From NCBI GenBank assembly GCA_965199495.1, contig CBDASK010000003.1, positions 448,001 to 512,000 on the forward strand: DNA of 64,000 nt. Reading direction: 5' to 3'. The position numbers and the translations under genes were made by a program. Shown in pieces: positions 15,568 through 47,184 of the stretch. Position 1 is the stretch's first letter. Each line of letters opens with the position of its first letter. Below the pieces are notes generated by a model that was given only the letters and a program-made list of their open reading frames with translations, made no database searches and was not told the DNA's origin. The DNA comes from Abditibacterium sp. (GTDB lineage: Bacteria > Armatimonadota > Abditibacteriia > Abditibacteriales > Abditibacteriaceae).

Positions 15568-15670
15568 CCTCCACATTTCGCTCTGAAACGGCTTTAGCAA
15601 CGCGCCACAAGACGCGCGAAAAGCGAGGTCAAACTTCGAGAGTCGACCTGATTCAGAGGGAAACGGGAGG
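15568..15670 (-). promoter_or_regulatory. mRNA helix pairing the leader Pro-Pro-Val-Ser-Leu-stop codons with the tolC SD
   Basis: mRNA CCUCCCGUUUCCCUCUGAA (15670-15652) pairs with UUCAGAGCGAAAUGUGGAGG (15587-15568): 18 bp including one GU, one mismatch and one bulge. Confidence 0.8.
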
Positions 15671-16204
15671 GGCACGCCCAATCAAGGACGCGAGCGAAAG
15701 CCGTTGAGGTTTGCCAATTGGTGGCCCGGCGCGCGAGTTCAAACCGCGCAACGCATCGAAGCGGTAAATCGGCAACGCGCTGGCGGCGGCATAAATAACC
15801 GCGTGCAAATCGGCTTTGTGTTGGTGCGGCGAACCGATGGCGACAACAGTCGCGTTGACCGGTTCGCTCGAACAGGAACAGCAGGTCGCCGGAGCCTGTA
15901 ACGTCGCGGCTTTAACGGCAACTTGCGCGTGATCGTGATACTCGCTGGCGTCATCGGAGTGATGGGACGCGCCAGAATCTTCATCTGCGTGAGAGTGAGA
16001 TTCGCTCACTTCGACGCCGTGCGAATGCCCGCCCGCTTCGAGCGAACAATCCATCGAAGCCGCGAAAGGAGTCGAAACGAAAAGCAAGAGCGCCATCAAC
16101 AGCGGCCACGCCGGACGACGCACGCCGATGCGCCACAGAGCGACCAATCCGCCCCATAGCGCGGCGGAGATGTTTCCGCGTGCGTCGTTAGTTGGCTTTC
16201 TCAT
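15653..16204 (-). CDS. RAPP leader peptide 1 (exported, His-rich, CCSC; DUF2946/CruR/CutF-like)
   Basis: Hydrophobic N-terminal segment, His/Asp-rich middle, CCSC, C-terminus RAGPP...ASLIGRAPPVSL*. Start uncertain. Confidence 0.75.
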   Translation of the reverse strand: MRKPTNDARGNISAALWGGLVALWRIGVRRPAWPLLMALLLFVSTPFAASMDCSLEAGGHSHGVEVSESHSHADEDSGASHHSDDASEYHDHAQVAVKAATLQAPATCCSCSSEPVNATVVAIGSPHQHKADLHAVIYAAASALPIYRFDALRGLNSRAGPPIGKPQRLSLASLIGRAPPVSL

Positions 16205-16269
16205 TTCGATTTTTGCCGTTGCGATTCGACCTGAGCAAAATTTTACGACAGTTGGACGCGTCCTGCAAT

Positions 16270-16286
16270 ATACGCCAGATGGGTAT
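16270..16286. promoter_or_regulatory. Putative CsoR-type operator
   Basis: ATACGCCAGATGGGTAT (ATAC-N9-GTAT), between leader 1 and the divergent DUF305 gene. Confidence 0.6.
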
Positions 16287-16451
16287 AACGCAAACAACAG
16301 AACTGGGTTCCTGTTTAGTGGATTCCGACTCAGCTATGGCGCCCGCGAAATCATAACTTTGAAGACAATTTCAAACGTGCATCAACATCTTTGCATTGAC
16401 CAAGGCAGCGATTTTCATTTATCATGGAGAAAATTTATAAGTTCATCTCAC

Positions 16452-16811
16452 ATGAAAAATATCCTGCCTTACACTCTTTCTTTCGCCCTGCTGGGAGCGG
16501 CATTGGGCGCCGGAAGCACTTACGCTTTAATCCGACAAAATGAGAAGCCGCTTTTGACGGTGGATCATAGCTCGATGCAAATGGCCTCTAATTCTATGGC
16601 AGACGGATTGAAAGGCAAAACCGGCGATGAGTTCGATAAAGCGTTTATTTCGCAGATGATCGAACACCACGAAGGCGCCGTCACAATGGCAGTGCAGGCG
16701 CACCAAAACGCGCGTCACGACGAAATCAAAGCGATGGCCGAAGATATTATCAGCGCGCAAACCCGCGAAATCGATCAGATGAGAAATTGGCAGAAGCAGT
16801 GGGGTTATTAA
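16452..16811 (+). CDS. DUF305 / CopM-like metal-binding protein
   Basis: FDKAFISQMIEHHEGAVTMA...AQTREIDQM; N-terminal signal or anchor. Confidence 0.85.
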   Translation: MKNILPYTLSFALLGAALGAGSTYALIRQNEKPLLTVDHSSMQMASNSMADGLKGKTGDEFDKAFISQMIEHHEGAVTMAVQAHQNARHDEIKAMAEDIISAQTREIDQMRNWQKQWGY

Positions 16812-16901
16812 TCGGCATCTTGCCTTGATAATAGCAGTGAAGATTTGGCCGACGCGCAAATCGCCGGGCCGCGTGGTGATTTACGCGTTGCCGTGAAACC
16901 A

Positions 16902-16937
16902 AAAACACCCGTTCGGCTCTCGCGGAACGGGTGTTTT
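16902..16937. terminator. Bidirectional terminator
   Basis: AAAACACCCGTTC...GAACGGGTGTTTT between convergent genes. Confidence 0.8.
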
Positions 16938-16952
16938 AATTGCGACTTTTCT

Positions 16953-17999
16953 CTACTGCACTACGTTGAACACGCGCGCCATGCCGACTGGCGAACCGTC
17001 GGGGCCGCTCATCATCGAGTTGCTGGTGTGATGCGGGACGTGGCAGTGAAACAGCCATTTGCCCGGTTTGTCGGGCGTGAACTCGGCCTCGAAGAAGTTG
17101 CCCGGCCCTTCGTCTTCGGTCGTGACCTGGAACTGTGCGGCGGCGGGGACTTCGTGGCCGTTGTTGGAGACGACGGTCATGTCGAAGTCGTGCTGGTGCA
17201 TCGAGTGGAACTGGTTGCTGGCGTTGTAGATGCGAATGCGAACCTTTTCGCCCACGCGCGCGGGCAGTTCCGAAGCGGCGTCGCGTGTTTTGCCGTTGAT
17301 GGTGTGGGTATTGAAGTCGCCTGTGCCCGGTGGAAATGGCATCACCGGCTGGCCCTCGCCCGGAATGAAGAACTGCTGAAGCACCATCGCGTAGTCGCGG
17401 TCAACGTGTTTGCTGACCGATTCTTTACGCGGCAACACCAGCAGAAATCCGTCCAAACCTTTCAACTCCTGCACCGCGCTATCGAAGTGAGAATGGTAGG
17501 CAAAAGTGCCGGTGTGTTGGGGCGTGAATTCGTAGGTGTAGGTTTCGCCGGGCGCAATGGGATTTAACTGGCTGATGCCAGCCACGCCGTCGTCTTCGTT
17601 GGGCGCGTGCGCGCCGTGAAAGTGAACCGTCGTAGGTTCGGGCAGTTCGTTTTTGACCACGAAACGCAATTTTTCGCCCTCGTAGGCGATGGCAGTCGGC
17701 CCTGGCGTTGAACCGTTGTAGCCCCACACTTCGGCGGTCTGATTAGGGAAAGTTTCGATCTTTTGCTTGAAGACCTGCGCGGTCAGATGAAACTCGCGCG
17801 CGCCATTGACCATCGTCGAGGCCAAATCCGGCACATCGGGCGTGATCGGCATCGTGGGCGCAACCTGTTGGGACGATCCCGATCCGGTCGAACCCGTGTT
17901 GCTGGTGAGGCCGCTTCCGCCGCCGCCACATCCGCTCAGGGCGGCCAGAATCATCGAACCGACCAGCACAAACTTCAAAGACTTCTCGAAATAGAACAA
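16953..17999 (-). CDS. Two-domain multicopper oxidase lipoprotein (type B, T1 site in domain 2)
   Basis: VHFHG, YHSH (no Cys), HSMHQH, FHCHVPHH...GM; lipobox LSGC. TTG 9 nt after AGGAG (ORF track start 18008). Confidence 0.85.
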   Translation of the reverse strand: MFYFEKSLKFVLVGSMILAALSGCGGGGSGLTSNTGSTGSGSSQQVAPTMPITPDVPDLASTMVNGAREFHLTAQVFKQKIETFPNQTAEVWGYNGSTPGPTAIAYEGEKLRFVVKNELPEPTTVHFHGAHAPNEDDGVAGISQLNPIAPGETYTYEFTPQHTGTFAYHSHFDSAVQELKGLDGFLLVLPRKESVSKHVDRDYAMVLQQFFIPGEGQPVMPFPPGTGDFNTHTINGKTRDAASELPARVGEKVRIRIYNASNQFHSMHQHDFDMTVVSNNGHEVPAAAQFQVTTEDEGPGNFFEAEFTPDKPGKWLFHCHVPHHTSNSMMSGPDGSPVGMARVFNVVQ

Positions 18000-18085
18000 T
18001 ACAATCAACTCCTCGCGTTTGGTAACGCACTGCGAAAAAGTCAGAGTTGGAGTCGAAAGAAGTCGGACAGCACCGCTATCGCCTC

Positions 18086-18102
18086 ATACCCTGCGGACGT
18101 AT
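18086..18102. promoter_or_regulatory. Putative CsoR-type operator
   Basis: ATACCCTGCGGACGTAT upstream of the multicopper oxidase gene. Confidence 0.6.
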
Positions 18103-18289
18103 TTTATAGAGAGAATGAAGGGCTGTCAAGGGAAATTTGAAGGTTATTTTTCAGGTGAACGCGCGGCCAACGGGAGTTGGCGCCCAGACTTGGAACAGCG
18201 ATGAATTTTAACTCGAAATCCACGCCGCGCGAACCTTTGCCGTAACCCTTGTGAAGCAGTAGGGTTTCCCCTCAATTGCTGTTTTTTAC

Positions 18290-18308
18290 GATACCCTGGC
18301 ATGGTATC
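18290..18308. promoter_or_regulatory. Putative CsoR-type operator
   Basis: GATACC-CTGGCAT-GGTATC upstream of csp. Confidence 0.7.
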
Positions 18309-18352
18309 CGCAATTATGCGTATATTACTCCAACCGGAGTAAAGGAAACACC

Positions 18353-18688
18353 ATGCAAACACTTTCTTCCGAGATGCAGACCTGCATCCAAAACTGCCTC
18401 GAATGTCATGCGACCTGCCTCAATATGCTTTCCAATCACTGTTTGGAAGCGGGCGGCAAGCACGTTGAGCCGAAGCACTTCAAGTTGATGATGGATTGCG
18501 CGCAAATCTGCATCACCAGCGCCGACTTCATGTTGCGCCAATCGGATCATCACCCGCATATCTGCGCCGAGTGCGCCGAAATCTGCACGGCGTGTGCCGA
18601 TTCGTGCGATGCCGTTGGCGATATGCAAGCGTGCGCCGACGCCTGTCGTAAGTGCGCCGCGAGTTGTGGCGCGATGGCCAAGAGCTAA
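18353..18688 (+). CDS. Four-helix-bundle copper storage protein (Csp3/DUF326-like)
   Basis: Dense CxxxCxxC repeats, no signal peptide, SD AAGGA. Confidence 0.92.
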   Translation: MQTLSSEMQTCIQNCLECHATCLNMLSNHCLEAGGKHVEPKHFKLMMDCAQICITSADFMLRQSDHHPHICAECAEICTACADSCDAVGDMQACADACRKCAASCGAMAKS

Positions 18689-18770
18689 CGCTCGCCGCCG
18701 ATCCAATGCGCCCGAAGCTCGCATCCGACTTCGGGCGCATTTTGCCGCCTTCCTCTCGGATGCTCACACC

Positions 18771-20378: not shown

Positions 20379-20443
20379 GTCTCGCGTGGGGCGGCTGATG
20401 TTCGAGCTAACTCAGCCACCGCGCCACGAATCCCCCTTCTAAC

Positions 20444-21199: not shown

Positions 21200-21266
21200 A
21201 TCGAACTCGTGACATCAAAAATCTGGCGAATTATTCGCCGGGCTTTGGTGTTTGTGGGATTAGGAG

Positions 21267-27023: not shown

Positions 27024-30000
27024 TTACACTTCGACATCCTGCGCTTCGTCGCGCTCGAACCAGTTGTAGAGCGTGGGCAACACGAACAGCGTCAAGATCG
27101 TGGACGTAATCAGCCCGCCGATGACCACCGTTGCGAGTGGCTTTTGCACTTCGCCGCCCGCGCCGTGTCCAAAGGCCATCGGGATGAAGCCAATCGAAGC
27201 GACGGTCGCCGTCATCAAAACCGGGCGCAATCGGGTTTCGCAGCCGCGCTGCACCGCTTCGCCCAGAGGCACGCCGCTTTGCCGCAGCTCATTGATGAAG
27301 GTCAGCAACACCACGCCGTTGAGAACGGCCACGCCGAACAGGGCGATAAAGCCGATGCCCGCCGAAAGCGAGAAATGCAACCCGCGCAGATAAAGCGCGA
27401 GGATGCCGCCCGTCACGGCGAAGGGAATACCGGTGAACACCAGAGCGGCTTGTTTGAGCGAGCCAAAGGTCGTGAAGAGCAACAAGAAGATGACCGCGAA
27501 GGTGATGGGCACCACGATCATCAAGCGCGCGCGGCCCGACTGCAACTTCTCGTAGGTGCCGCCGTATTCGACGCGATAGCCGGGCGGCAAAGCGACTCGC
27601 TGCGCGACGCGCTTTTGCAGCGCCTCCACGACCGTTCCCAGGTCGCTGCCGCGCACGTTCATTTGAACGACGGTGCGGCCTTCGCCGTTCTCGCGCGAGA
27701 GTTGAACCGGCCCATCGCTTTCCACGATGTCCGCGAGTTGGGCGAGCGGAACATCGGGGCCTGAGGGCGAGTGGATCAAAATGCGCCCGATGGACGCGGC
27801 ATCCGAGCGATACTGCGGCGCCAAACGCACCACGAGTGGAAAGCGGCGGTCGCCTTCGATGATGGTCGAAGCCTGTTTGCCGCCCAGGGCGCTTTCGACG
27901 ACGGAGTTCACATCAGAGATGCTCAGGCCGTGACGCGCCACCTCGTCGCGGTTGATTTTGATGTCGAGGAGCGGCAGACCGGCGGTGGTTTCGACCGACA
28001 CATCGACGGCGCCGGGAATTTTACGGGCGACATCGGCGATTTTGTCGGCAAATTTGGCGCGAACATCGCGGTCAGGGCCAAACAACTTGATGCCGACATC
28101 GCCCCGGATGCCCACGCCCTCGATGAGTTCGTTCATCCTCATCTCGATGGGCTGCGAGAACGTGGTGCCCACGCCGGGCAAGTCGCCCAGCACGCCCTCC
28201 ATCTTCTCTACGAGTTCGGCCTTGTCGTGCGCTCGCTTCCAGCCGCTCTGGGGTTTGAGAGAAATCAGCACGTCGCTTCCGCTGACCAGATCGGGGTCGG
28301 TCGCCAGTTCCGCCCGCCCGATGCGCGCGAACACAGTGTCGATCTCGTCGGGAAACTCGTCTTTGAGGTGACGGCTCAACACCGTTTGGCGCCACACCGC
28401 CTCTTCCAGAGAAATGCTCGCGGGATAGGTTGCCCGCACCGAAATCGAGCCTTCATCCAATTTGGGAATGAACTCCGAGCCGAGCAACGGAAACAGCGCC
28501 AAACAGCCGACCAGAAACAGGCTCGCCGCGCCGGTCGTGAGCCAGCGATGTTTGATGGTGCGCGCCAGAAGCGGCGCGTAACCGCGCCGCAACCGCTCCA
28601 ATACCGGGTTGTGCTTTTCAACTTTGACGTTGAGAAAAAAGGTGCAAAGCGCCGGAACAACGGTGAGCGAAATCACGACCGCGCCCAAGAGCGCGATGAT
28701 CACGGTTTGCCCCATCGGGCGGAACATCTTGCCTTCGATACCAACGAGCGTCAAAATCGGGATGTAGGCCGCGATGATGATGAACGTGCCGAAAACCGCA
28801 GGCTTGAGCACTTCGGTCGCCGCCTGCGCGATCACGCCTTCGCGCTCGCCTTGGGTGAGGTCGCGCCCCAGTTCGCCCCTTCGTTCGCTCAGCAAGCGGA
28901 TGGCGTTTTCGACGATGATGACCGCACCGTCCACGATGAGGCCAAAGTCCACTGCGCCCAGACTCATCAGGTTGGCCGAGATGCCGAAGTAGTTCATCCC
29001 GATGAGCGCAATGGCCATTGCGAGCGGAATCGCGCTCGACACAATCAACCCGGCCCGCAACTGAAGCAAGAACAGGAACAACACGGCGATGACCAGAACG
29101 CCGCCTTCGATGAGGTTGCGCGTCGCCGTCCCGATGGCGCGGCCAATCAGTTCGCTTCGGTCGAGAAAGCCGTTGAGCTTAAGTCCCGGTGGCAAGGTTT
29201 TCTGGATTTGCGCGACTTTGTGTTTCACGCGGTTCACCACGACGCGCCCGTTTTCGCCGAGCAAGAGCAGCGTGATGGCGTAGACCTGCTCGCCCTCGCC
29301 GTTGCGGATGGTGGCGCCCTGGCGCACCGCCGCGCCAAAACCGACCGTGCCGATGTCGCGGATTTTGACCGGCACGCCGTTTTCCGCCTTGATGACGATG
29401 TTGCCGATGTCGCTCACACTTCGCACCAAACCCGAACCGCGAATCAGTTCTTGTTCCGAGCCTTTGGTGATGTAGGCGCCGCCCGCGTTCCCGTTGCCAT
29501 TCTCCAGGGCCGTCAAAACTTCGCCCATATCCAGGCGCCGTGCCGCGAGTTTGGCCGGGTCAACTTGCACTTGATACTGCTTCGCCTCACCGCCCAGGGT
29601 GTTCACTTCGGCGAGGCCGGGAACGGTTCGTAGTTGAGGAGCGACCAGCCAGTCCATAATGGTGCGCCGCTCCATAAGCGAGTATTGTTTGGGCGATTTG
29701 GGGTCGTTGTCAAGCGAGATATAGTAGATTTCGCCCAGCCCCGTCGAAACCGGCGACAAGTCCACCGCCGAGCCTGTGGGAAGTTGTTCGCGCACCTCGT
29801 TCACCCGTTCATTGACGAGTTGGCGCGCGAAGTAGATGTCGGTCGCGTCGTCAAAAACGACCGTGACCTGCGACAAGCCGAACTGCGAAACCGAGCGCGT
29901 TTCCACCTGATGGGGCAGGCTGGACATGGCGATTTCAAGCGGAAAAGTGATCTGCCGCTCGATGTCTTCCGGGCCAAGCGAGGGCGACTTCACGTTGATT

Positions 30001-30143
30001 TGCACCTGCTTGTTGGTCACATCCGGCACGGCATCAATGGGCAGTTGCAGCGCCGAGTAGACGCCATAAGCTAACACCATGAAGGCAGCGATTAAGACGA
30101 ACACGCGCTGCTTGATGGAAAATTCGAGGATTTTTTGGATCAT
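27024..30143 (-). CDS. czcA: CzcA-family heavy-metal RND permease, operon 2
   Basis: LPIDAVPDVT, SLGAVDFGLIVDGAVIIVEN, RLRPVLMT. Confidence 0.95.
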   Translation of the reverse strand: MIQKILEFSIKQRVFVLIAAFMVLAYGVYSALQLPIDAVPDVTNKQVQINVKSPSLGPEDIERQITFPLEIAMSSLPHQVETRSVSQFGLSQVTVVFDDATDIYFARQLVNERVNEVREQLPTGSAVDLSPVSTGLGEIYYISLDNDPKSPKQYSLMERRTIMDWLVAPQLRTVPGLAEVNTLGGEAKQYQVQVDPAKLAARRLDMGEVLTALENGNGNAGGAYITKGSEQELIRGSGLVRSVSDIGNIVIKAENGVPVKIRDIGTVGFGAAVRQGATIRNGEGEQVYAITLLLLGENGRVVVNRVKHKVAQIQKTLPPGLKLNGFLDRSELIGRAIGTATRNLIEGGVLVIAVLFLFLLQLRAGLIVSSAIPLAMAIALIGMNYFGISANLMSLGAVDFGLIVDGAVIIVENAIRLLSERRGELGRDLTQGEREGVIAQAATEVLKPAVFGTFIIIAAYIPILTLVGIEGKMFRPMGQTVIIALLGAVVISLTVVPALCTFFLNVKVEKHNPVLERLRRGYAPLLARTIKHRWLTTGAASLFLVGCLALFPLLGSEFIPKLDEGSISVRATYPASISLEEAVWRQTVLSRHLKDEFPDEIDTVFARIGRAELATDPDLVSGSDVLISLKPQSGWKRAHDKAELVEKMEGVLGDLPGVGTTFSQPIEMRMNELIEGVGIRGDVGIKLFGPDRDVRAKFADKIADVARKIPGAVDVSVETTAGLPLLDIKINRDEVARHGLSISDVNSVVESALGGKQASTIIEGDRRFPLVVRLAPQYRSDAASIGRILIHSPSGPDVPLAQLADIVESDGPVQLSRENGEGRTVVQMNVRGSDLGTVVEALQKRVAQRVALPPGYRVEYGGTYEKLQSGRARLMIVVPITFAVIFLLLFTTFGSLKQAALVFTGIPFAVTGGILALYLRGLHFSLSAGIGFIALFGVAVLNGVVLLTFINELRQSGVPLGEAVQRGCETRLRPVLMTATVASIGFIPMAFGHGAGGEVQKPLATVVIGGLITSTILTLFVLPTLYNWFERDEAQDVEV

Positions 30144-30145: not shown

Positions 30146-32287
30146 TTAATCTTCGTCCGCGAGTTCTCCTTTCATGGCCTGCGACTTGACCACGAACGCG
30201 CCTTGGGTCACGATCTTTTCGCCGGGCCGCAGCCCGTTTTGGATCGCGGTCTGGCCGTTTACGCTCGCGCCGACCTTCACCGGACGCGCCTCAAATTCAT
30301 GGGCTTTGCCGGTCGCCACGAACACGACGGTTTTGTCGTTCATCGTCTGCACCGCGTCCGAGGGCACGCTCACGCCGAGTTTTCCGGCGGGCGTGGCAAT
30401 CTGGCCGCGCGCGAACATTCCGGGCCGCAGATCGCCGGGATTATCGAGGAGGGCGCGCGCGGTCAGGGTGCGCGTTTCCGCGTCGAGTTGCGCCCCGATA
30501 AACGAAATGCGCCCCCGAAAAGTGCGACCGGGAAACGCGTCCACGTTCGCCGTGACCGGCGCGCCGACGCGAATGCGCGCCACGTCTTTCTCGTAAATCG
30601 CCGCTTCGATGGCGACGTTTGCCAGACTCACCAGCGTCATCAACTGCTTGTCGGCCTCGATGGTCTCGCCCTGCGCCACGTCGCGGCTTTGCACCACACC
30701 GGCAATCGGCGCGCGAATCGGCACCGAGGCGGTGCCATTGGGCGAACTTTTGAGCAGCGACAGCGCGCTGCGCGCCGCCGTGAGATCGGCCTGCGCGCCG
30801 TTATAGGCGCTTTGCGCCGCCTGAACCTGGGCGATGTTGTTGAGGTTCTGTCCTTGAATCCGCCTTTCGCGTTCGTAGGCGGCATTGGCGACTTCGAGCG
30901 TTTGGCGCGCTTTGTTCGAAGCGGTGCGCGCGTTTTCCAAGGCGCTCTGCGCGCCCGAAACTTCGCGGCGGTTGGCGATGTTTTGCCCGACGGTCGCGCG
31001 TTCACGCGCCAGAGCGATGCCCGCCAAGCGCACGCTTTCGCGCGCGCGCCTGAGTTCGGCCTCGCGCGTGGCTGCATCGGCGCGCGCACTCGCCAGGGCG
31101 CTTTGGGCCGCGCCGACTTCGGCGGTTCCCGCGACGTTAGAAGACGCTAATTTCTGTTGCCTTTGCAGCTCCTGTTGCGCGGTGTTCTCGTCGGCCTGCG
31201 CGGTTTGCAGACGCGCGGTCGCGGTGTCGAAGGCTTGCTGGGCCGCTTCCAAATCGCGCTGCGAAACCAGACCTTCGGCGGCCAATGATTTGGCGCGCGC
31301 GAGATTGGCGCGCGTGGTGGCGACTTCGCTCCCAGCCGCCGCGCGCGCCGACTGTGCCGCGACCAGAGCGCGCCCCGCTTCCTGCACCGGGCGCGCGACG
31401 TAAGCGCCGCCCGCCGCCAGTTGGCGACGGCGTTCGAGTTCTTGCGCCGCGCTTTGCGCGCTCGCGCGGGCGTTGGCCAAAGCGGCCTCGGCGCTACGCT
31501 GGGCTTCAGATGCGGCGGCGGATTGGGCGCGGGCCGCTTCGAGTGCGGGATTGGCGAAACTGCCCAGCTTGGCCTGTCTTTGCACGTTGTCCAAAGTAAC
31601 GCTCGCCTGACGCACGGCGGTTTCTTGCGCGCGCACATCGGCCTGAGCTTCGACCTGAGCGCGTCGCGCCGCTTCGACCGGCGCGCGCGAAAACACGCCC
31701 GCGCGCGCCTGTTTGTTGACGACGCTTAAATTCGATTGCGCGTTGTTGAAGCGCGCCAGGGCTTGAGCGTAAGCCGACTGCGCCTCGCCGATGGCGCGGC
31801 TTTCCACGATGGCCAAAACCTGACCTTGCGTCACGCGGTCGCCCTGCGAGACATTGAGGCGCGTCACGCGCCCCGGCACGAGGGAAGCCACGCGCGCCAC
31901 GCCATTGGGATCGGGCGCGATTTGGCCGTTGAACGGCACGCCGCCCGTCAGTTGCGAGACCGCAACCGGACTGATTTTCAGCCCGGCCAGACGCGCCGAT
32001 TTTTCATCGAACTGCACGGTCTGAACGCCGCCTTCGGCGCCCGCTTCAGCGTCGGTTTCGGCGGGCGCGGCTTCGACCGCAACGCTGGCAGTTTCGGGCG
32101 GCGCGACTGGCGGCGCCGTGCGGCGACCGAGCAGAAAAGCGACGAGACCCAGCGCCAGCGCGCCAATAACGAGCGGAGCAACCGCGTTTTTGGAGCGCGG
32201 CGCGGGTTTTTCGGCGATTGAAATTTCGGAAGTGGAATCCGCCTGGGTTTGCGGATCGAGCGGAGTGGGATTGTGGGTGGAACTCAT
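30146..32287 (-). CDS. czcB: CzcB-like periplasmic adaptor with a very long alpha-hairpin
   Basis: TM anchor, lipoyl halves, LRPGMF; close paralog of the adaptor at 11161. Confidence 0.9.
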   Translation of the reverse strand: MSSTHNPTPLDPQTQADSTSEISIAEKPAPRSKNAVAPLVIGALALGLVAFLLGRRTAPPVAPPETASVAVEAAPAETDAEAGAEGGVQTVQFDEKSARLAGLKISPVAVSQLTGGVPFNGQIAPDPNGVARVASLVPGRVTRLNVSQGDRVTQGQVLAIVESRAIGEAQSAYAQALARFNNAQSNLSVVNKQARAGVFSRAPVEAARRAQVEAQADVRAQETAVRQASVTLDNVQRQAKLGSFANPALEAARAQSAAASEAQRSAEAALANARASAQSAAQELERRRQLAAGGAYVARPVQEAGRALVAAQSARAAAGSEVATTRANLARAKSLAAEGLVSQRDLEAAQQAFDTATARLQTAQADENTAQQELQRQQKLASSNVAGTAEVGAAQSALASARADAATREAELRRARESVRLAGIALARERATVGQNIANRREVSGAQSALENARTASNKARQTLEVANAAYERERRIQGQNLNNIAQVQAAQSAYNGAQADLTAARSALSLLKSSPNGTASVPIRAPIAGVVQSRDVAQGETIEADKQLMTLVSLANVAIEAAIYEKDVARIRVGAPVTANVDAFPGRTFRGRISFIGAQLDAETRTLTARALLDNPGDLRPGMFARGQIATPAGKLGVSVPSDAVQTMNDKTVVFVATGKAHEFEARPVKVGASVNGQTAIQNGLRPGEKIVTQGAFVVKSQAMKGELADED

Positions 32288-33855
32288 TGATTTTCGCCTC
32301 CCAGGGGAGCGCCGGGTAGCGTGTTGGTGGGCGGAGCGCCCGTCGGATCAAGGGGCGCGACGACGTTGGGCGGGATGGTGTTTTGGGGCACGGTGCCGGG
32401 CACAGCCACGCCGGGCGGCGCGTTCAAACCGTCGGGATTGTTGAGCGGGTCGAGCGCGCCGGTGTAAGTGGCGCCCAGCGCGCTTTCGAGCGCGGCCTCG
32501 CCGCTGCGAACGCCGACCAAGGCTTGCAGATATTCGGTTTGGATTTGGCGGGCGGCGCGTTGCGCTTCCAAAACTTCGAGGTAAGTCGAGGCGCCTTGGG
32601 CGTAGCCGAGTTGCGTTTTTCGCAGCAAGTCGAGCGTCTGGGGCACCAGCGATTCACGGTAGCGCGCCACCAGAGCACGATTTTGCTGGAGCGTCACCAG
32701 CGCGCTTTCGACCTGCGCGGCGACCTGCGAGCGCAACAGTTCGACCTGCTTTTCCTGCGCCTGCGCTTCAAACTCGGCGGCGCGCTGCTGGTTTTTGATG
32801 TTGCCCAGATCGAAGAGCGGCACGGTCAACACGGCGCGTAGCGAGGTCGAAGCGGAATCGAAAACGCCGCCGCGCCGCGCCTGAATTTCGAGTTGCGGGC
32901 GCCGCGTGCGCGCAATCGCCGTCACCTGAGCGCGCGCCGCTTCGAGCGAGGCTTGGGCCGACAAAACGTCGGGCCGCTGCAACGCGCCCGGCAACAAAGC
33001 CGCGCGCGAGGCGACCAAATCGGAGCCGATCTGCGACGACGCCGGAACGATTTGACTGGGCGATAAAGGCTGAATCGTCGGCGCCGTTGGTGAAAGCGGC
33101 GGCGCGGCATCGAGCGCAACGGCGGGCACGCCGGTGTTTGGCGCGGCGGACGAAAAGACGCCAAAAGCGCCACTTTCGGGTAGCGCCACGCGTAGGGGAG
33201 CTTCAGGCGCCTGTCCGATGAGTTGATTGAGCAACGCGCGCCGCGACAGACGCGCGGCGCGGGCGCGGTCGAGTTCAATGGCGGCGCGGTCGAATTCGAG
33301 TTGCGCGCGCTGGGTTTGCACCGGCGGCACATCGCCCAATTCGGCGCGGCGCGCGGCGGCATCGCGGAACTGCCCGGCGATGTCGAGTTGGGTTTGGCCC
33401 AGCGACTCGGCTTCCTGGGCGGCGAACAGATCGGCAGCGGCGTTTTTCACGCTCACGATGAGCGAACGCGTCGCCAGATCGCGCTCGGCCTCGGCACGGC
33501 GCACCTGCGCGTCGAAGATACGGCGCCCCGCGCGGCGCTGGCCGAACAGGTCTATCGGCTGCGAGAGAATGATCTCTTCGTCGCGCGAGTTGGCGTTACC
33601 AAAAACGCCGGGCACGATTTGAAGCGTCGGGCCGAGCGAAGCGCGCGCGGACTGGGCGCGGGCGCGCGCCGCCTCATAGTTGGCGGCGGCGATTTGCGGT
33701 TGCGGGTTGAGTTGCAGGGCGCGCGCGATCAGATCGTCAAGCGCAACTGCGGGTTCGGAAGGAATGGAATTGGCGGGAACGGCGGAAGCGACATCTTGCG
33801 CTCCGGCGGGCGCGGCTGCGACTAAAAGCAGCGCGATGAAAATGCGAGGGTTCAA
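32284..33855 (-). CDS. czcC: TolC/CzcC-family outer membrane factor, operon 2
   Basis: ALQLNPQ, GYAQGASTYLEVLEAQR. TTG start with AGGAG 8 nt upstream. Confidence 0.88.
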   Translation of the reverse strand: MNPRIFIALLLVAAAPAGAQDVASAVPANSIPSEPAVALDDLIARALQLNPQPQIAAANYEAARARAQSARASLGPTLQIVPGVFGNANSRDEEIILSQPIDLFGQRRAGRRIFDAQVRRAEAERDLATRSLIVSVKNAAADLFAAQEAESLGQTQLDIAGQFRDAAARRAELGDVPPVQTQRAQLEFDRAAIELDRARAARLSRRALLNQLIGQAPEAPLRVALPESGAFGVFSSAAPNTGVPAVALDAAPPLSPTAPTIQPLSPSQIVPASSQIGSDLVASRAALLPGALQRPDVLSAQASLEAARAQVTAIARTRRPQLEIQARRGGVFDSASTSLRAVLTVPLFDLGNIKNQQRAAEFEAQAQEKQVELLRSQVAAQVESALVTLQQNRALVARYRESLVPQTLDLLRKTQLGYAQGASTYLEVLEAQRAARQIQTEYLQALVGVRSGEAALESALGATYTGALDPLNNPDGLNAPPGVAVPGTVPQNTIPPNVVAPLDPTGAPPTNTLPGAPLGGENQ

Positions 33856-33859: not shown

Positions 33860-33899
33860 GGTTCTCCTGAGTTCGATGGGCGATCAAATCAGGGTAACC
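33860..33899 (-). promoter_or_regulatory. SD-sequestering hairpin starting at the last RAPP codon
   Basis: mRNA GGUUACCCUGAUUUGAU-cgccc-AUCGAACUCAGGAGAACC: 15 bp, enclosing the AGGAG of czcC. Confidence 0.8.
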
Positions 33900-34360
33900 G
33901 GCGGCGCGCGGTGCGGCAAAGAGGCGCGCACCAAACGGCCCACGAGCGGCGGCACGCTCACTGGCCCGTCACGCCCAAAGACCGCCGCGCGCTGCCACAG
34001 CGCGACCACAACTGATGCAGCCACAGCCACGACCCGGACCAGAGCGATCCAAAGCAACGCGGGCGCCACCACGAGCGGCGCAAACGCGCAGGGAAGGTTC
34101 ATGTTTTCGTCCACGCTCGCGCAAACGTCGGTGTCGGTGATGCCGGTGATCGAATGCGTAACGACCATCGCAACCGTCGCAATCGCGCGCGTGGCGGCGC
34201 TAAGCGCAGCGCCGGGCATGATGTCCGTCTGGCAATCGGAGCCAGCCAAGCCGCACCAGAACGTGTGAGTCGCCAGCAAAAACACCAGCCACAGCGCCAC
34301 GCCCGACGTTTGGAAAGAAACGGGGCGCGCCGGTTGGTAGGGTTGGCGGGTGCGACTCAT
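33884..34360 (-). CDS. RAPP leader peptide 2 (two hydrophobic segments, Cys/His)
   Basis: Ends RDGP...RASLPHRAPPVTLI*; first gene of operon 2. Confidence 0.7.
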   Translation of the reverse strand: MSRTRQPYQPARPVSFQTSGVALWLVFLLATHTFWCGLAGSDCQTDIMPGAALSAATRAIATVAMVVTHSITGITDTDVCASVDENMNLPCAFAPLVVAPALLWIALVRVVAVAASVVVALWQRAAVFGRDGPVSVPPLVGRLVRASLPHRAPPVTLI

Positions 34361-40811: not shown

Positions 40812-40825
40812 GTGTGTTTTTCCTT

Positions 40826-41929: not shown

Positions 41930-41940
41930 GGTTTATTCTT

Positions 41941-41970
41941 CATCGTATATCGCTGTTAGACGATAGAACT
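41941..41970. promoter_or_regulatory. Putative ArsR operator, internal copy before acr3
   Basis: ATCG-N8-CGAT core; 22 of 30 nt identical to 42299-42328. Confidence 0.6.
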
Positions 41971-41983
41971 GTCGAACGAGCGA

Positions 41984-42301: not shown

Positions 42302-42306
42302 CGTTC

Positions 42307-42341
42307 ATTGGTAATATACGATAGACCTAAAAGCGCGTCAA
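42307..42341 (-). promoter_or_regulatory. Sigma70 promoter of arsR with overlapping operator
   Basis: TTGACG (42341-42336), 17 nt, TATATT (42318-42313); ATTG-N8-CGAT overlaps the -10. Confidence 0.75.
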
Positions 42342-42408
42342 GGTGTTCGCGGCAAAATTTCAGGAGAAAGATCTGACCGGATGCGGTGAATTCAAGCTCC
42401 ATTCACAA

Positions 42409-42435
42409 AAAAGCCCGCGAAGTTCGCGGGCTTTT
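42409..42435. terminator. Palindromic terminator
   Basis: AAAAGCCCGCGAA-G-TTCGCGGGCTTTT; same core as 36448. Confidence 0.78.
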
Positions 42436-42552
42436 CTACTTGTCCGATTCCAAGTCTTTGATATATTCTTTCATCTCAGCGAGTTCGCGCTTCTGCGCTT
42501 CGATAATTTCGTCGGCCAACTTGCGGACGCGCGGATAAGGATTCTTATCCAT
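42436..42552 (-). pseudogene. C-terminal remnant of a DUF305-like gene (not in the ORF track)
   Basis: Translates as MDKNPYPRVRKLADEIIEAQKRELAEMKEYIKDLESDK*; compare EIKAMAEDIISAQTREIDQM in the 16452 protein. Confidence 0.75.
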
Positions 42553-42625
42553 TTTGTTTTCCAAGTGAATGTTTAAGTGAGCTACGGCTGGCCCGCGCAG
42601 TGCGGCGAGCCAGCCTGATTTGTTT

Positions 42626-43000
42626 CTAACCTTTCACGATGAGCTTGCCGCGCACCATGTTCATGCCGCAGTGAAAAGTGAACTCACCCGCTTTATCGGG
42701 CGTGAATTCGACCGGCACTTCCTCGTTTTGCGGCAGCATTTTGGAAACGCCGAAGTCGCCGAAGATGACTTGCTCGGTGCAACTGTTGCTTTCTTTTCGG
42801 GTGAACAACAGGCGCACCGGTTGGCCCTTTTTAACTTCGATGCGGTCGGGCGAGTAGCCACCTTGCACCGTGACTTTGATTTGCTGCACGCCTCCGGCAA
42901 CGGCGGCTTGCTCCGAGGCGCGCGGGCCGAAAAAGAACCACACCACGAAGAGGCTCAGTAAAATGCCGCCGCTGACAACCCAAATTTCTGCTGTGTCCAT
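42626..43000 (-). CDS. Membrane-anchored cupredoxin (CupA-like)
   Basis: N-terminal TM, GGYSPD, SCTE, FHCGMNMVRG. Confidence 0.9.
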   Translation of the reverse strand: MDTAEIWVVSGGILLSLFVVWFFFGPRASEQAAVAGGVQQIKVTVQGGYSPDRIEVKKGQPVRLLFTRKESNSCTEQVIFGDFGVSKMLPQNEEVPVEFTPDKAGEFTFHCGMNMVRGKLIVKG

Positions 43001-45372
43001 CAGGAACTCCTTTCGATTTTAAATCCGCGCAATCGCAGCGCGTTGAACACCACCGAAACACTCGACAGCGCCATCGCCAGACTCGCCAGAATCGGCGAGA
43101 GCAGCCAGCCGGTGAACGGATACAAAATGCCCGCCGCGATGGGAATGCCCAGCACGTTGTAAATAAAGGCGAAAAACAGGTTCTGCTTAATGTTTTTCAC
43201 CGTCGCCCGCGACAGCGCGATGGATGCAGCCACGCCGTGTAAGTCGCCTTTGACGAGCGTGATATCGGCGGCTTCCAAAGCCACGTCGGTGCCGGTTCCC
43301 ATCGCAATGCCGACATCGGCTTGGGCCAGCGCGGGCGCGTCGTTGATGCCGTCGCCGACCATCGCCACCTTTTTTCCTTCGGCCTGCAACTCTTTGATTT
43401 TGGCCGCTTTGCCGTCGGGCAGAACCTCGGCGAAAACGCGCTCGATGCCGACCTGTCGCGCGATGGCGTGAGCCGTCTTTTCGTTGTCGCCGGTCAGCAT
43501 GGCGACTTCCAAACCCAAATCGCGCAGCTTTTGGATGGCAGCGCGCGAACCGTCTTTAATCGGATCGGCGATGGCAATAACGCCCGCGAACTTACCGTCG
43601 AGCGCCACGAAAACCGGAGTTTTGCCATCTTCCGCGAGGGCGTCCGAGGTTTGCTCATCGGGCGCCAAACCGCGCTCGCGCATCAGTTTCGCGTTGCCAA
43701 TGAGGACTTGGTGCCCTTCGACTTTCGCCTCAATGCCGTGTCCGGCGACCGCCTCAAACGCTTCGACCGGCACCAACTTCAAGCCCTTGTCTTTGGCATC
43801 GCGCACCATCGCTTCGCCCAGAGGATGCTCGCTGCCGCTTTCGGCTGAGGCCGCTAAACGCAGCAGTTCGCCTTCATCAATGCCATGCGCCACGATGTCG
43901 GTCACACTCGGCTGGCCCTGCGTGATGGTGCCGGTTTTGTCCAAGACAATCGCGCTCAGTTGGTGCGCGGTTTCCAGCGCCTGCCCGCCTTTGATGAGAA
44001 TGCCGTTCTGCGCGCCGCGCCCCGTTCCGACCATAATCGCCGTCGGCGTGGCTAAGCCCAGCGCGCACGGGCAAGCGATCACCAAAATCGAAACGCTGGT
44101 TAAAAGTGCCAGCGTCAGGCGCGAATCCACCGGCGCCACCACGAACCAGATTACGAACGACGCAATCGCCAACAGAATCACGACCGGAACGAAGAAACCG
44201 GCAACGGTATCGGCCAACTTCTGAATCGGCGCTTTGCTGCCCTGCGCCTGTTGCACCAACCGCACGATGCCCTGCAAAACCGTGTCGCTGCCGACCTTGG
44301 TCGCCCGAAAGCGGAAACTGCCGGTCTTGTTGAGTGTCGCGCCGATCACGCTATCGCCCGCCGCTTTTTTCACCGGCAACGGTTCGCCGGTCAGCATGGA
44401 CTCGTCCACACTCGATTCGCCCCCGACGACTTCGCCGTCAACCGGAATTTTCTCGCCGGGCCGCACCGTCACGATGTCTCCGGCGCGCACCTCTGCGATA
44501 GGGATTTCCATTTCCTGCCCGTCGCGCTCGACGCGCGCGGTTTTGGCCTGCAAGCCCATCAAGGCGCGAATCGCGCTGCCGGTTTGGGCGCGCGCTTTGG
44601 CTTCCAACAAGCGCCCCATCAAAATCAGCGTGATTATAATGGCCGCGACTTCATAATAAACGCCGGTCGGCGCGTTGCCGTGCCCACCACTCCCGTGCGC
44701 CGTAACTGCTAAAAGTTCGGGCGCGAAGGTCACCACGATGCTATAAAGATAGGCCACCAAAGTGCCAATCGCCACCAAGGTGTTCATGTCGGCGGAGCGA
44801 TGGCGCGCCGCCGCCCACGCGCCGGTGAAGAACTCGCGGCCCGCCCAAAAAACTGGCGTGGTTAAAGCCAATTCAACATAAGCGCGTCCGGGAAAGTTGA
44901 AGAGCCGCTCCAACGCGGGCAAAAGGTGCCCGCCCATCGCCATGACCGCGACCGGAATCGTCAACACCAGCGCGATGATGAACTTGTTCTTCTGCTCGTT
45001 GAACTCGCGGTCGCGCGCCTCGACTTCGGCGTCGGCCAGCGACTGCACGGGCGCGGCGCCCTCGTTGCTCGGCTGCTGCACGATGGCGTCGTAGCCCACT
45101 TTTTGCACCGCCTCGCGCAGTTTGGCCGGGTCGGTTTGCGCGGGATCGTAAGTCACCGTCGCGCGCGTAGTCGCAAAATTGACGGTCGCGTTTTCCACGC
45201 CCTCGGCTTTATTAAGCGCCTTTTCGATGCGAACCGCGCACGCCGAACAGTGCATTCCCAACAGCGGCAAATCCGCGCTCTGGCTGGAGGTGCCCGCGTC
45301 TTCTAATTCCAACTCCGCGACGGCAGAGGGCGAGGCCGAATCGTGATCTTTATGATGATTTGTGTGATCCAT
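43000..45372 (-). CDS. copA: Cu(I)-translocating P1B-1 ATPase
   Basis: His-rich start, GMHCSAC, CPC, DKTGT, YN, MALSS; SD AGGAG. Confidence 0.95.
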
Positions 45373-45413
45373 ATCACTCCTTTTCCCGGTTAAGGTTTTT
45401 AGTTCGACACGCC

Positions 45414-45632
45414 TTAAATGGCCGATTTTACACGGAATCCCGCGCCTTCGACGGCAGAAATCAAGCTCGCAATGTTCAGGTTCTCTCCGCGCACTCGCGC
45501 CATTTTTTCCACCAGGTTGATCGAAACGCTGGACACGCCCGCCGTATTCGCCAGCGATTGCGTGATCTGGTTTTCGCAACCGCCACACTTCATACCCTCG
45601 ATCTCTATCACCACGTTTTGTTGATTATCCAT
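45414..45632 (-). CDS. copZ: CopZ-like HMA copper chaperone
   Basis: IEGMKCGGC...AGF; SD AAGGAG. Confidence 0.88.
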
Positions 45633-45644
45633 CTCTGCTCCTTT

Positions 45645-45661
45645 ATACCCCCAAAGGGTAT
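45645..45661. promoter_or_regulatory. CsoR-type operator
   Basis: ATACCC-CCAAA-GGGTAT upstream of copZ-copA. Confidence 0.8.
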
Positions 45662-45710
45662 TGAAAATCAAGACAGAGAATAAACTCTCGCGTTCCCTGC
45701 GGAGCGAGAT

Positions 45711-46157
45711 TTAGCGGGCGAACGGCTGAATTTTAGCGATTTTCGCGCCCAACAGCGGCAGCAGTGCCATCTGCAAAAGCGGCAACATTCCAAGATGGAC
45801 GCCTAAAATTTGAATCTGCGGCATAAGCGGCCCATAACGCCACCAACCGCCCAGCGACGCGAGAGTTTCGATGGCAACCGCAGCGATAAATCCCGCAGCA
45901 ATGAGCAGCCACGTCGGCGGCAAACGGGACTTTCGATTTCCCAAACAGAGCGCGCCTCCCACTAAAATTACGCTTAAAACAGCGTCGGCGACCGTCGCTC
46001 CCAGCATCCACAGCGCGCCCTTCCACACGCTAAATCCGCTCATATCATAAAAGAACAAGCACTGAAAGAATTCCCAGACGCCATGCAAGGTAAAGCTCCA
46101 CCACGCTAAGAGCGCGAGAGGAGCCAAAGTTTGAATATGGTGCGACAATCGGGACAT
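45711..46157 (-). CDS. Small integral membrane protein
   Basis: About four hydrophobic segments; HGVWE, WWRYGPLMP, PLLQM. Confidence 0.65.
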   Translation of the reverse strand: MSRLSHHIQTLAPLALLAWWSFTLHGVWEFFQCLFFYDMSGFSVWKGALWMLGATVADAVLSVILVGGALCLGNRKSRLPPTWLLIAAGFIAAVAIETLASLGGWWRYGPLMPQIQILGVHLGMLPLLQMALLPLLGAKIAKIQPFAR

Positions 46158-46167
46158 TACGACGAAT

Positions 46168-46458
46168 TTACTTGAGAAAACGCTGAAGCGAAACGCGAAC
46201 TTCTTCGATCAATTCCTCTTTACTGAGCGGCTTGGAATCAAGATGCGCGTCCTCGCTCCCGTGTCCCATGACGCAGGTTTCGAGATGGTTGGTCAGCAGT
46301 TCCACGCCCAACGAATCCAACGCGGCGCGAACAGCGGAAATTTGGTTGAGAATGTCGAGACAGTAGCGATCTTCGTCAATCATTTTACTGACGCCGTTGA
46401 TTTGCCCACTGACACGGCTGATGCGCGACTTGATGGCTTTGCGAGAAGTTTCTTTCAT
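46168..46458 (-). CDS. csoR: CsoR copper-sensing repressor
   Basis: RVSGQINGV, YCLDIL, NHLETC (C-H-C fingerprint). Confidence 0.92.
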   Translation of the reverse strand: MKETSRKAIKSRISRVSGQINGVSKMIDEDRYCLDILNQISAVRAALDSLGVELLTNHLETCVMGHGSEDAHLDSKPLSKEELIEEVRVSLQRFLK

Positions 46459-46472
46459 GATGCTTACACTGA

Positions 46473-46497
46473 ATACCCCATTAGGGTGTGATGTCAA
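46473..46497 (-). promoter_or_regulatory. CsoR autoregulatory operator and -35 element
   Basis: ATACCC-CATTA-GGGTGT, with a minus-strand TTGACA at 46497-46492. Confidence 0.7.
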
Positions 46498-46606
46498 GAC
46501 GATAGAGCAGGGTTCACGTTCAGAAAAACCGGCGAACACTTCCACCGCGTGTTAAGAGTTGTCGGTTCGCACGGGAAATTTGTGATGTCGCTAAAGCGTT
46601 GGTCAC

Positions 46607-46623
46607 ATACACTGGCGGAGTAT
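46607..46623. promoter_or_regulatory. Putative CsoR-type operator
   Basis: ATACACTGGCGGAGTAT upstream of leader 3. Confidence 0.6.
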
Positions 46624-46692
46624 AGAAATTGGAACGGTCACCAGAGAGACTCGTCCGGTTTTGAGCGTTTCGCTGGTAAACGCACTTTTATT

Positions 46693-47184
46693 ATGAGTCA
46701 GTGGCGTCGCCTCCCTTTCGTCTTGATGGCCCTGTTTGCGCTGTGTGCGCTGACGGTGCCTTCGTTGGCGTGGGCGTGCCCCATCACTGGGCGTAGCGGA
46801 GCCGCAACTCAGGTTTGTATCAATGCTCCGGCTTCTGGTCAGTCGAACCAGGCTGCCAACGTGATGGCGTGTTGTGCGCCCACGCATGGAAACGCCGCGA
46901 TGTCAGGCAACGGGTGCCTGGGGACGTGCTGCAAAGCCGTGCCACAGTTGCCAAACGGCGACCCCGCCAAAAATACTGCGCTTTCGCAAGCGCATTGGAA
47001 TATCGCCGGTCTGCTCGATCAATTGTCGCAGACCGCTCATACTGTTTTTATCCTCGCGCCTCCGGTCGCTCCACTCGTTATCGAGCCGCCGCGCGCACTT
47101 TTTCGGGGTGACGCTTCCGTTGCTCCTCTGCTCACCCAATTCGCGTTCTCTCTGTTCGCGGGTCGCGCTCCACCCATCGGTTAA
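46693..47184 (+). CDS. RAPP leader peptide 3 (exported, Cys-rich)
   Basis: Signal peptide AWA|C; CC, CLGTCC; ends FSLFAGRAPPIG*. Confidence 0.75.
   Translation: MSQWRRLPFVLMALFALCALTVPSLAWACPITGRSGAATQVCINAPASGQSNQAANVMACCAPTHGNAAMSGNGCLGTCCKAVPQLPNGDPAKNTALSQAHWNIAGLLDQLSQTAHTVFILAPPVAPLVIEPPRALFRGDASVAPLLTQFAFSLFAGRAPPIG

Follow-up and report, generated by a model that had tools for sequence, protein, structure and literature searches.

Leader ORFs of three efflux operons

A 64,000-nt stretch of Abditibacterium sp. DNA, referred to here as the window, carries three operons for efflux systems of the resistance-nodulation-division (RND) type. Each operon opens with a short open reading frame (ORF), named leader 1, 2 or 3, whose product ends in the motif RAPP. 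The leaders and their main features are the following:

15653..16204, minus strand: leader 1, 183 aa, with a signal segment, a His-rich stretch, CCSC, an RAGP site and a terminal RAPP
15872..15883, minus strand: CCSC of leader 1 (C108-C109-S-C111), 46 residues before RAGP and 65 before RAPP
15665..15676, minus strand: terminal RAPP of leader 1 (R177); its first Pro codon, CCT, begins the anti-Shine-Dalgarno (anti-SD) sequence
33884..34360, minus strand: leader 2, 158 aa, with a signal segment, sparse Cys/His, a second hydrophobic segment, RDGP and a terminal RAPP
33899..33910, minus strand: terminal RAPP of leader 2
46693..47184, plus strand: leader 3, 163 aa, Cys-rich, with a single RAPP; its final Cys lies 77 residues before RAPP
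47164..47175, plus strand: RAPP of leader 3, RGPP in the ortholog L098

The translations agreed with the preliminary description of this DNA, which had reported ORFs of 158-183 aa with an N-terminal export or transmembrane segment and with RAPP 2-4 residues before the stop codon. An N-terminal hydrophobic segment was present in all three leaders, and the motif lay 3, 4 and 2 residues before the stop within the C-termini ASLIG-RAPP-VSL, ASLPH-RAPP-VTLI and FSLFAG-RAPP-IG. Among the 14,778 six-frame ORFs of 80-300 aa in the host genome (labelled G000), five ended in RAPP with an upstream hydrophobic segment, against two in total for the other 11 orders of the same four letters. RAPP was absent from the 845 host ORFs of at least 500 aa, where 14 occurrences were expected. 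The ratio of nonsynonymous to synonymous substitution (dN/dS) between leaders and orthologs was 0.28-0.45 in four valid pairs, a fifth, mis-framed pair being excluded. The three ORFs are real upstream ORFs (uORFs), and their RAPP endings are no chance effect. Because of the published RAPP biochemistry and the depletion of the motif in the proteome, we infer that they very probably stall ribosomes at RAPP.

The leaders had been described as showing little obvious similarity beyond their endings. Leaders 1 and 2 are, however, related over their final ~80 aa (hhalign probability 95%, E 2.7e-8). The density of Cys and His, per 10 residues, climbed from 0.31 to 1.75 just past a distance of 60 residues from RAPP, a hydrophobic stretch occupied positions -31 to -40 from the motif, and a CC pair was found in 54 of 68 leaders. 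An AlphaFold model of the leader-1 family showed a helix at residues 33-50, corresponding to the signal, and no fold beyond it (pLDDT 60, pTM 0.23); the mature leader is predicted to be disordered and is rich in His and Cys. Searches of Pfam, NCBIfam and Atlas assigned the leaders to no family, yielding CopL at a score of 14.6 (cut-off 40) and unnamed Atlas clusters. The profile search for DUF2946 proposed in the preliminary description came out negative: PF11162 (cut-off 23.7 bits) matched neither the three leaders nor any other part of G000. The best leader-1 relative reached 18.3 bits, below the cut-off, and one TonB leader of a relative passed it with 25.1 bits.

Conservation across relatives

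The survey for RAPP-type ORFs upstream of homologous pump operons, suggested earlier, recovered them in every pump set. The loci of relatives are labelled L###, and matches to the leader-1 family P####; the tolC- and czcA-anchored sets were picked via the pump and not via the leader. An exported ORF ending in RAPP, RGPP or RSPP lay directly upstream of tolC at 20 of 25 non-self loci, with one more match at a contig end left out. Leaders were found at 33 of 54 RND3-type loci (30 of the 41 with more than 5 kb of upstream DNA, and 4 more by a relaxed look) and at 21 of 40 czcA loci, 37 of which came from other families. They also preceded TonB receptors at 18 of 30 loci and thioredoxin-like genes at 10 of 15. 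All counts over loci ignore kinship, and kin are not independent, which weighs against our interpretation wherever it leans on such counts. In the host genome, all four metal-type RNDs had a leader, and none of the three other RNDs did.

The five remaining tolC loci comprised L019, one locus without upstream DNA, one after a sensor-kinase-like gene and two with a partial tolC. In the leader-1 ortholog of L019 (878-1410), a single base changed the terminal Arg to Pro while RAGP and the helix described below were kept; it represents either a natural arrest-dead variant or a sequence error. The terminal RAPP was also gone, and the upstream motif (site 1, below) kept, in P0006, P0031 and P0045. 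By eye, the intact but leaderless tolC of L014 starts with ATG 10 nt past a 467-aa sensor-kinase-like gene, and a two-component system may stand in for the leader there. The tolC start codon was TTG or GTG in 22 of 24 loci.

Four further leaders ending in RAPP or RGPP were found in G000. They precede a pump with membrane fusion protein (MFP) in the order tolC-MFP-czcA (C3:4052456-4052887), a ResA-like thioredoxin (4605494-4606042), a rusticyanin-like protein (4312360-4312791) and a TonB receptor with ExbBD-TonB (2055458-2055937). The rusticyanin-like leader carries two sites, HGPP and RAPP. The TonB receptor gene (C3:2052722-2055360) is split into two overlapping ORFs of 250 and 737 aa, owing to a frameshift or an assembly error.

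A predicted helix sequestering the tolC ribosome-binding site

In leaders 1 and 2, the codons for the terminal Pro-Pro and the stop codon pair with the SD sequence of the following tolC gene:

15652..15670, minus strand: 5' arm of the leader 1 helix, from the first Pro codon to the stop
15568..15587, minus strand: 3' arm of the operon 1 helix, containing the tolC1 SD GGAGG
13861..15561, minus strand: tolC1, an outer-membrane efflux protein (OEP), with an inferred GTG start at 15561
33860..33899, minus strand: leader 2 hairpin; 33883-33899, from the last Pro codon to the stop, is paired with 33860-33877, which holds the tolC2 SD AGGAG
32284..33855, minus strand: tolC2 (OEP), with a TTG start 28 nt past the leader 2 stop

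The leader 1 helix comprises 19 bp (fold z -4.41, 0 of 200 shuffles), and the leader 2 hairpin is kept in L001 and L003 with compensating changes. We compared the energies of cognate and non-cognate duplexes between leader tails and ribosome-binding sites (RBSs) in three locus sets with 20000 permutations. The RBS anchors were chosen by eye from the SD and the reading frame in the tolC set, and by a fixed rule in the other two. At 18 tolC loci with short spacers, the cognate duplex reached -20.9 kcal/mol, against -13.5 +/- 0.9 kcal/mol when permuted (0 of 20000); L012, L014, L024 and L025, which have no leader, were left out. The cognate preference was equally strong (0 of 20000) in 34 RND3-type loci, 5 of 39 having been dropped because no start was picked, and in 17 czcA loci, after removal of three without a start and one duplicate. 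The helix test on TonB loci dropped 3 of 18, and one spurious TonB match (L127) was removed. The first Pro codon was CCT in 14 of 25 leaders, compared with 5.7% genome-wide. GGG before Pro is ordinary in the host genome (51%).

To model the stalled ribosome, we blocked a ribosome-sized stretch at RAPP and placed the first Pro in the P site, where toeprinting had put it in CruR of Bordetella pertussis (PMC12992588; what is said here and below of cited papers holds for parts of those papers). This block cut the cost of opening the RBS by 6.6 kcal/mol for leader 1 and 3.3 kcal/mol for leader 2. Over the 18 loci the median drop was 6.25 kcal/mol, and it was at least 3 in 16 of them. By the same measure of lowered cost, a block at site 1 gave 0.2 (leader 1) and -3.1 (leader 2), and a ribosome positioned there would leave the RBS closed. 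Given the pairing of the terminal codons with the SD, stalling in leaders 1 and 2 should mean that tolC is ON, in parallel with SecM and CutF, and a stall at the terminal RAPP is likely to open the tolC RBS in both.

A different arrangement was seen in the 200-240 nt spacers of L006, L008, L009, L020, L021 and L022. There the leader tail with RAPP base-pairs with the nucleotides that immediately follow the stop, and for these a competing downstream partner lies beside an anti-SD; a four-segment switch of the attenuator type is possible. Its computed effect was small (0.7-3.8 kcal/mol).

A second motif upstream of RAPP

Leaders 1 and 2 contain another arrest-like motif, termed site 1. Neither this motif nor the SD helix was part of the preliminary description; both are added by the present analysis.

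15719..15733, minus strand: site 1 of leader 1, RAGPP (R158), 19 residues before RAPP
33962..33973, minus strand: site 1 of leader 2, RDGP (R130), which follows the conserved C80 by 50 residues and precedes RAPP by 21

Both RAGP and RDGP have been published as RAPP-like motifs (PMC10987492). Of 62 leader-1 family matches, 49 ended in RAPP or RSPP, and 45 of these 49 carried site 1 at 18-22 residues upstream (RAGP 22, RDGP 22, HGPP 1), counts that are partly circular because the search profile held both motifs. The R and G of site 1 were invariant in 49 of 49 aligned members. A published RAPP-like motif occurred 5-28 residues upstream of RAPP in 15 of the 25 tolC-anchored leaders (shuffle maximum 4). 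The same held for 12 of the 21 czcA-anchored leaders (shuffle maximum 5), which were collected after the idea of site 1 had been noted; nine of the 12 motifs were RGPP or RAPP. No published motif was found in windows further upstream in these two sets. Site 1 was also missing from all 18 TonB-receptor leaders and all 10 thioredoxin-like leaders. Overall it was present in 27 of 46 efflux leaders and in 0 of 28 non-efflux leaders, a contrast whose Fisher value is overstated because kin are not independent. A hairpin in which site 1 would pair with the GRAPP codons at the RNA level was rejected as an explanation (mean z 0.02, n=51).

Of 43 leader-1 family members, 37 had the Cys pair 44-46 residues ahead of site 1; the distance from the pair to RAPP was about 65. 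In the TonB-receptor leaders, a CxxC lay 43-45 residues before the single motif in 16 of 18 cases. These leaders have mostly long C-rich spacers and no SD helix, and from their sequences the TonB-receptor leaders of the phylum look like CruR.

Leader 3

The preliminary description had proposed leader-tolC reporter fusions, and a leader-tolC arrangement is present in operons 1 and 2. Leader 3 departs from it, being followed by 286 nt and a 103-aa ORF, with the OEP gene last in the operon:

46168..46458, minus strand: CsoR/RcnR-family repressor, divergent from leader 3
47185..47470, plus strand: leader 3 spacer, 286 nt, moderately C-rich; the helix 47185-47193/47310-47318 is kept in L098
47471..47782, plus strand: 103-aa exported Cys-containing ORF, the first gene after leader 3

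Neither pairing between the leader tail and the SD nor an SD helix was found in the 286-nt spacer, which speaks against extending the leader-tolC scheme to leader 3. A direct tail:SD switch was tried for this leader and rejected, with a free-energy difference (ddG) of -0.9 and a slightly opposite value in the ortholog. The excess of C over G reached 13 per 78 nt in the spacer, within the top ~2% of coding windows, and Rho is encoded in the genome. Most likely, leader 3 is also a uORF whose stalling turns its operon ON, with a different output; by analogy with CruR, this output may be of the Rho type.

Two imperfect inverted repeats at 46474-46488 and 46607-46623, between the CsoR-family gene and leader 3, are possible operators and may resemble CsoR boxes. 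Before the RND3-type operons of L060, L073 and L075, Cys-rich exported leaders carry a terminal LPPP, IQPP or LSPP in place of RAPP. The first gene after the leader apparently uses ATC or ATT as its start codon, preceded by a GAGG SD and in many cases without any ATG in frame, at L035, L036, L038, L057-L059, L061, L065, L069, L072, L081, L084, L086, L088 and L090. Rule-picked starts were ATC or ATT in 17 of 34 loci; two of these (L044 and L056) precede a canonical start.

Proposed mechanism and alternatives

We propose that leaders 1 and 2 would act in cis as exported arrest peptides. The tolC RBS would be locked by the helix whose 5' arm consists of the terminal Pro-Pro and stop codons. Without metal, the ribosome would wait at site 1 (RAGP or RDGP), too far upstream to touch the helix, and the pump would be off. 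Metal bound to the Cys/His region would release site 1, as in CruR, and the ribosome would advance 19-21 codons to RAPP. With the Cys pair now about 65 residues away, outside the release window, the stall would persist, tolC would be unlocked and the pump would be made. This explanation as a whole, joining cis-acting arrest peptides, SD unlocking and a two-step metal inverter, is tentative, its chance being a little under even. Metal itself is rather probable as the signal. That tandem two-site arrest works as a logic inverter in the efflux leaders of Armatimonadota is possible but somewhat doubtful.

The earlier suggestion that arrest-peptide uORFs gate the pumps appears sound for leaders 1 and 2 in view of the conservation, the RAPP depletion and the SD helix, and leader 3 falls outside the leader-tolC scheme. 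The suggestion had come with the concern that efflux control would need inverted logic. This concern is partly relieved, in that the predicted helix would make a stall mean ON in leaders 1 and 2, CutF of Rhodobacter capsulatus provides a precedent, and the upstream motif offers a route to inversion.

Several observations weigh against the two-step mechanism. On the side of the helix, the leader 2 hairpin is shorter than that of leader 1 and weak when taken alone (z -1.37, 20 of 200 shuffles), and seven long-spacer loci showed no cognate pairing (5605 of 20000 permutations). RNAalifold, run on a MAFFT alignment, also missed the helix, whose registers shift between loci; this is why the duplex test was used, and it is the co-variation of tail:RBS pairing that supports the helix. 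The thioredoxin-like leaders have the same helix with a single site, so the helix is independent of site 1. Site 1 is missing in leader 3, in its ortholog L098 and in the fourth RND leader of G000, and among ~40 RND3-type leaders it was a published motif in 7, most having RIRPP, DSSPP or NSPP. Its depletion in the proteome is modest (RAGP 4 against 21 and RDGP 3 against 10, with controls AAGP 11 against 36 and ADGP 8 against 18), and therefore site 1 may not stall. Across efflux families, the distance from Cys was mostly 44-53 residues to site 1 and 56-68 to RAPP, with outliers on both; given this variation, the 60-65 residues to RAPP could be the selected spacing. Finally, hhalign found no significant homology between TonB-type and efflux-type leaders (probability at most 9%).

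The main rival of the inverter is a single switch like that of CutF. Here only the terminal RAPP would stall, periplasmic metal bound to ligands 60-120 residues out would weaken the pull of export or folding, and the longer stall would open the SD, leaving site 1 as a tunnel-contact or pause element. The helix data fit this switch equally well. It accounts for the rise of Cys/His density past 60 residues, for the hydrophobic stretch at -31 to -40 and for leaders without site 1, and copper-induced stalling is reported to open the cutO SD (PMC9973294; bioRxiv 2025.02.05.636593). What it leaves unexplained is that site 1 retains R-x-G-P or RGPP at the spacing known from CruR, without variation in 49 of 49 leader-1 family members, and is absent from 18 of 18 importer leaders, and we consider it somewhat unlikely. 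A SecM-like monitor of Sec capacity or periplasmic oxidative folding, tying synthesis of the envelope complex to export, seems improbable. Export signals in all leaders, the CC pair in 54 of 68 and the single-site helix leader ahead of the ResA-like thioredoxin gene would suit such a monitor. Yet it does not predict that leaders in G000 are confined to metal-type RNDs (4 of 4 against 0 of 3) or that the leader-1 family is His-rich, and the only intact leaderless tolC with upstream DNA, at L014, follows a sensor-kinase-like gene, as if a leader replaced a sensor.

Regulation might instead be wholly transcriptional, with a stall that always occurs and sets tolC output near the translocon. The divergent CsoR-family repressor at operon 3 agrees with such constitutive coupling, which we regard as quite improbable, since the conserved Cys pair and the fixed spacing from Cys to the motif would go unexplained and no regulator was seen adjacent to operons 1 and 2. 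Least probable is a trans-acting periplasmic metal-binding modulator for which RAPP is incidental. Its model is CzcI, which lies upstream of czcCBA and quenches the pump (PMC10127602), and a mature leader that is disordered and rich in His and Cys would be compatible with that role. It cannot explain the conservation of RAPP, the CCT bias or the co-varying SD helix, and CzcI is described without a C-terminal Pro motif (PMC9973294). Modulation of the CzcI kind may be a second role only.

Pumps and genomic context

Operon 1 runs leader, tolC, MFP, YtkA-like protein, cupredoxin, RND1. Operon 2 has the order leader, tolC, MFP, RND2. In operon 3, leader 3 and the 286-nt spacer are followed by the 103-aa ORF, cupredoxin, YtkA, MFP, RND3, a hypothetical gene and the OEP. 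The remaining genes are as follows:

11161..13860, minus strand: MFP of operon 1
9972..11120, minus strand: YtkA-like exported protein of operon 1 (weak Pfam match)
9250..9627, minus strand: cupredoxin-like protein of operon 1
5674..9024, minus strand: RND1, CusA/CzcA family, with HAEGVH and HRLDH motifs (TIGR00914, 858 bits)
30146..32287, minus strand: MFP of operon 2
27024..30143, minus strand: RND2, CusA/CzcA family, with a DFG-type TM4 motif (TIGR00914, 1221 bits)
47922..48554, plus strand: Met-rich cupredoxin-like protein of operon 3
48227..49117, plus strand: YtkA-like lipoprotein of operon 3, true start probably later than the ORF start
49080..51848, plus strand: MFP of operon 3, with YtkA and cupredoxin domains
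51845..55318, plus strand: RND3 (TIGR00914, 340 bits)
55889..57232, plus strand: OEP of operon 3, last gene of the operon

The systems had been described as tripartite metal pumps. RND1 and RND2 fit this with scores above the CusA/CzcA family cut-off (TIGR00914, 701 bits), and RND3 falls below it. The HAEGVH and HRLDH motifs mark the NieA-type HME5 clade of proposed nickel exporters (PMC7060636), which makes RND1 a putative Ni pump from its sequence. RND3 may have a copper role, to judge by the neighboring genes, and its closest named relatives belong to Abditibacteriales/Abditibacteriaceae and other Armatimonadota. The idea that the ligand set of each leader matches the metal of its pump held in part. 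Leaders with 11-15 His occurred only before RND1-type pumps (6 of 12, including leader 1) and never before the 12 of RND2/CzcA type, but the other RND1-type pumps have Cys-rich leaders. The match is partial because leader types have been swapped between pumps: a pump sharing 82% identity with RND2 carries another type of leader, and a homolog of leader 2 belongs to a pump with an identity of only 62%.

The window annotation showed no regulator gene adjacent to operons 1 and 2, an Rfam search of the window returned no riboswitch, and scans for promoters and terminators in the three leader regions gave nothing informative. Positions 5000-58000 form a heavy-metal island, which also holds a multicopper oxidase, two P1B ATPases, a short CDF protein (200 aa), an FTR1-like protein, a MerT-HMA fusion with a reductase, ArsR, two ArsC-like genes and an SBF/Acr3-type transporter. 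A stray OEP fragment lies at 57275-57655. The flanks of the island (670-2306 and 60727-63312) contain a phage replication O-like ORF, a pentapeptide-TIR protein and a CHAT-domain protein.

Relation to known arrest peptides

CruR (Bp2923, DUF2946/PF11162) has a CXXC-RAPP spacing of 45, and five added residues strongly reduce the copper effect (PMC9426467). Its stall is shown in PMC12992588 (Fig EV5); stalling keeps the targets of CruR and CutF ON, and metal releases CruR. Like CruR, the leaders are exported uORFs with a Cys motif and RAPP 2-4 residues from the stop, and the N-terminal export signal is represented by the hydrophobic segments of all three and by helix 33-50 in the leader-1 model. 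They deviate from the CruR rule of a CXXC 45 +/- 2 residues before the terminal RAPP, the distance being 65 in leader 1 and 77 in leader 3, with no CXXC in leader 2. The rule fits only site 1 of leader 1 (46), although the CruR spacing can also be likened to the 50 residues between C80 and site 1 in leader 2. CruR contains a single motif, works via Rho across a spacer of 162 nt and precedes an importer, whereas leaders 1 and 2 carry two motifs, an SD helix and a short spacer, and precede efflux pumps.

CutF is likewise an exported Cys-containing uORF, in which a stall melts the stem-loop shielding an SD and turns a metal-detoxification gene on (PMC9973294; bioRxiv 10.1101/2025.02.05.636593). 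A stem-loop of this kind, close enough for the stalled ribosome to reach, covers the SD downstream of leaders 1 and 2 but not that of leader 3. CutF stalls at PPP and needs elongation factor P (EF-P), whereas RAPP is EF-P-refractory (PMC12992588), and those accounts of CutF describe no second site. The CutF-like survey of PMC9973294 required a signal peptide, PP in the last 15 residues and a same-strand gene within 1000 nt, all of which the leaders have, and a length below 150 aa, which they exceed at 183, 158 and 163 aa. Metal acts on stalling in CruR and CutF through Cys/His ligands, and such ligands are conserved in the leaders. The leaders probably work like CruR and CutF, yet they are no PF11162 members by score or spacing.

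The defining trait of RAPP-class arrest peptides is a stalled ribosome whose P and A sites hold Pro-Pro, a stall that an Arg-to-Ala change abolishes. SecM, ApdA and ApdP (PMC10987492, PMC12992588) share the RAPP/RAGP core, the export signal and the freeing of an SD by the stalled ribosome. They differ in controlling sec/yidC genes and sensing pulling force, and RDGP or RAGP is terminal there. The work on such monitoring substrates weighed only the most C-terminal di-proline motif (PMC10987492, PMC12992588). Arrest at RAPP can differ with the source of the ribosome (PMC12992588).

uORFs of this position and anatomy have been catalogued before. CutF-like uORFs were most often upstream of RND-associated OEPs, with SilD, CusD and CzcI named (PMC9973294). 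The source data of PMC12992588 Fig 4B give RAPP against AAPP uORF counts of 530/380 for TolC, 620/148 for adaptors and 50/7 for CusA/CzcA. The words RND, efflux and TolC do not occur in the main text of PMC12992588 as far as covered, and the catalogued OEP/RND uORFs come there with no mechanism, helix or second site. The portion of the PMC9973294 and PMC12992588 supplements covered contains no Armatimonadota or Abditibacterium names, and the remainder may list these loci. A literature search that covered few subscription journals returned no description of tandem RAPP-like sites or of a tested RND leader. The class of leader, RAPP or CutF-like uORFs before TolC/CzcA, is already known; the lineage is new, and the tandem-arrest variant is a candidate novelty. 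Among the TolC-associated rows listed in the PMC12992588 source table, ~7 of 29 by eye have an upstream RAGP, RGPP, AGPP or TGPP-like site. The second-site design may extend to other phyla.

How metal can have opposite effects through exported Cys/His uORFs of a single family is a question that the CruR, CutF and RAPP papers, in the parts considered here, do not answer. In leaders 1 and 2, the predicted output can be read from the mRNA, in which a stall would mean ON, and within one phylum a single additional arrest-like motif distinguishes exporter leaders from importer leaders. If the proposed mechanism is true, a single added motif would let one sensor family shut importers and open exporters for the same metal. 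The inverter would then be a new nascent-peptide design, in which sequential stalls have different outputs, and would allow control of metal efflux without a transcription factor.

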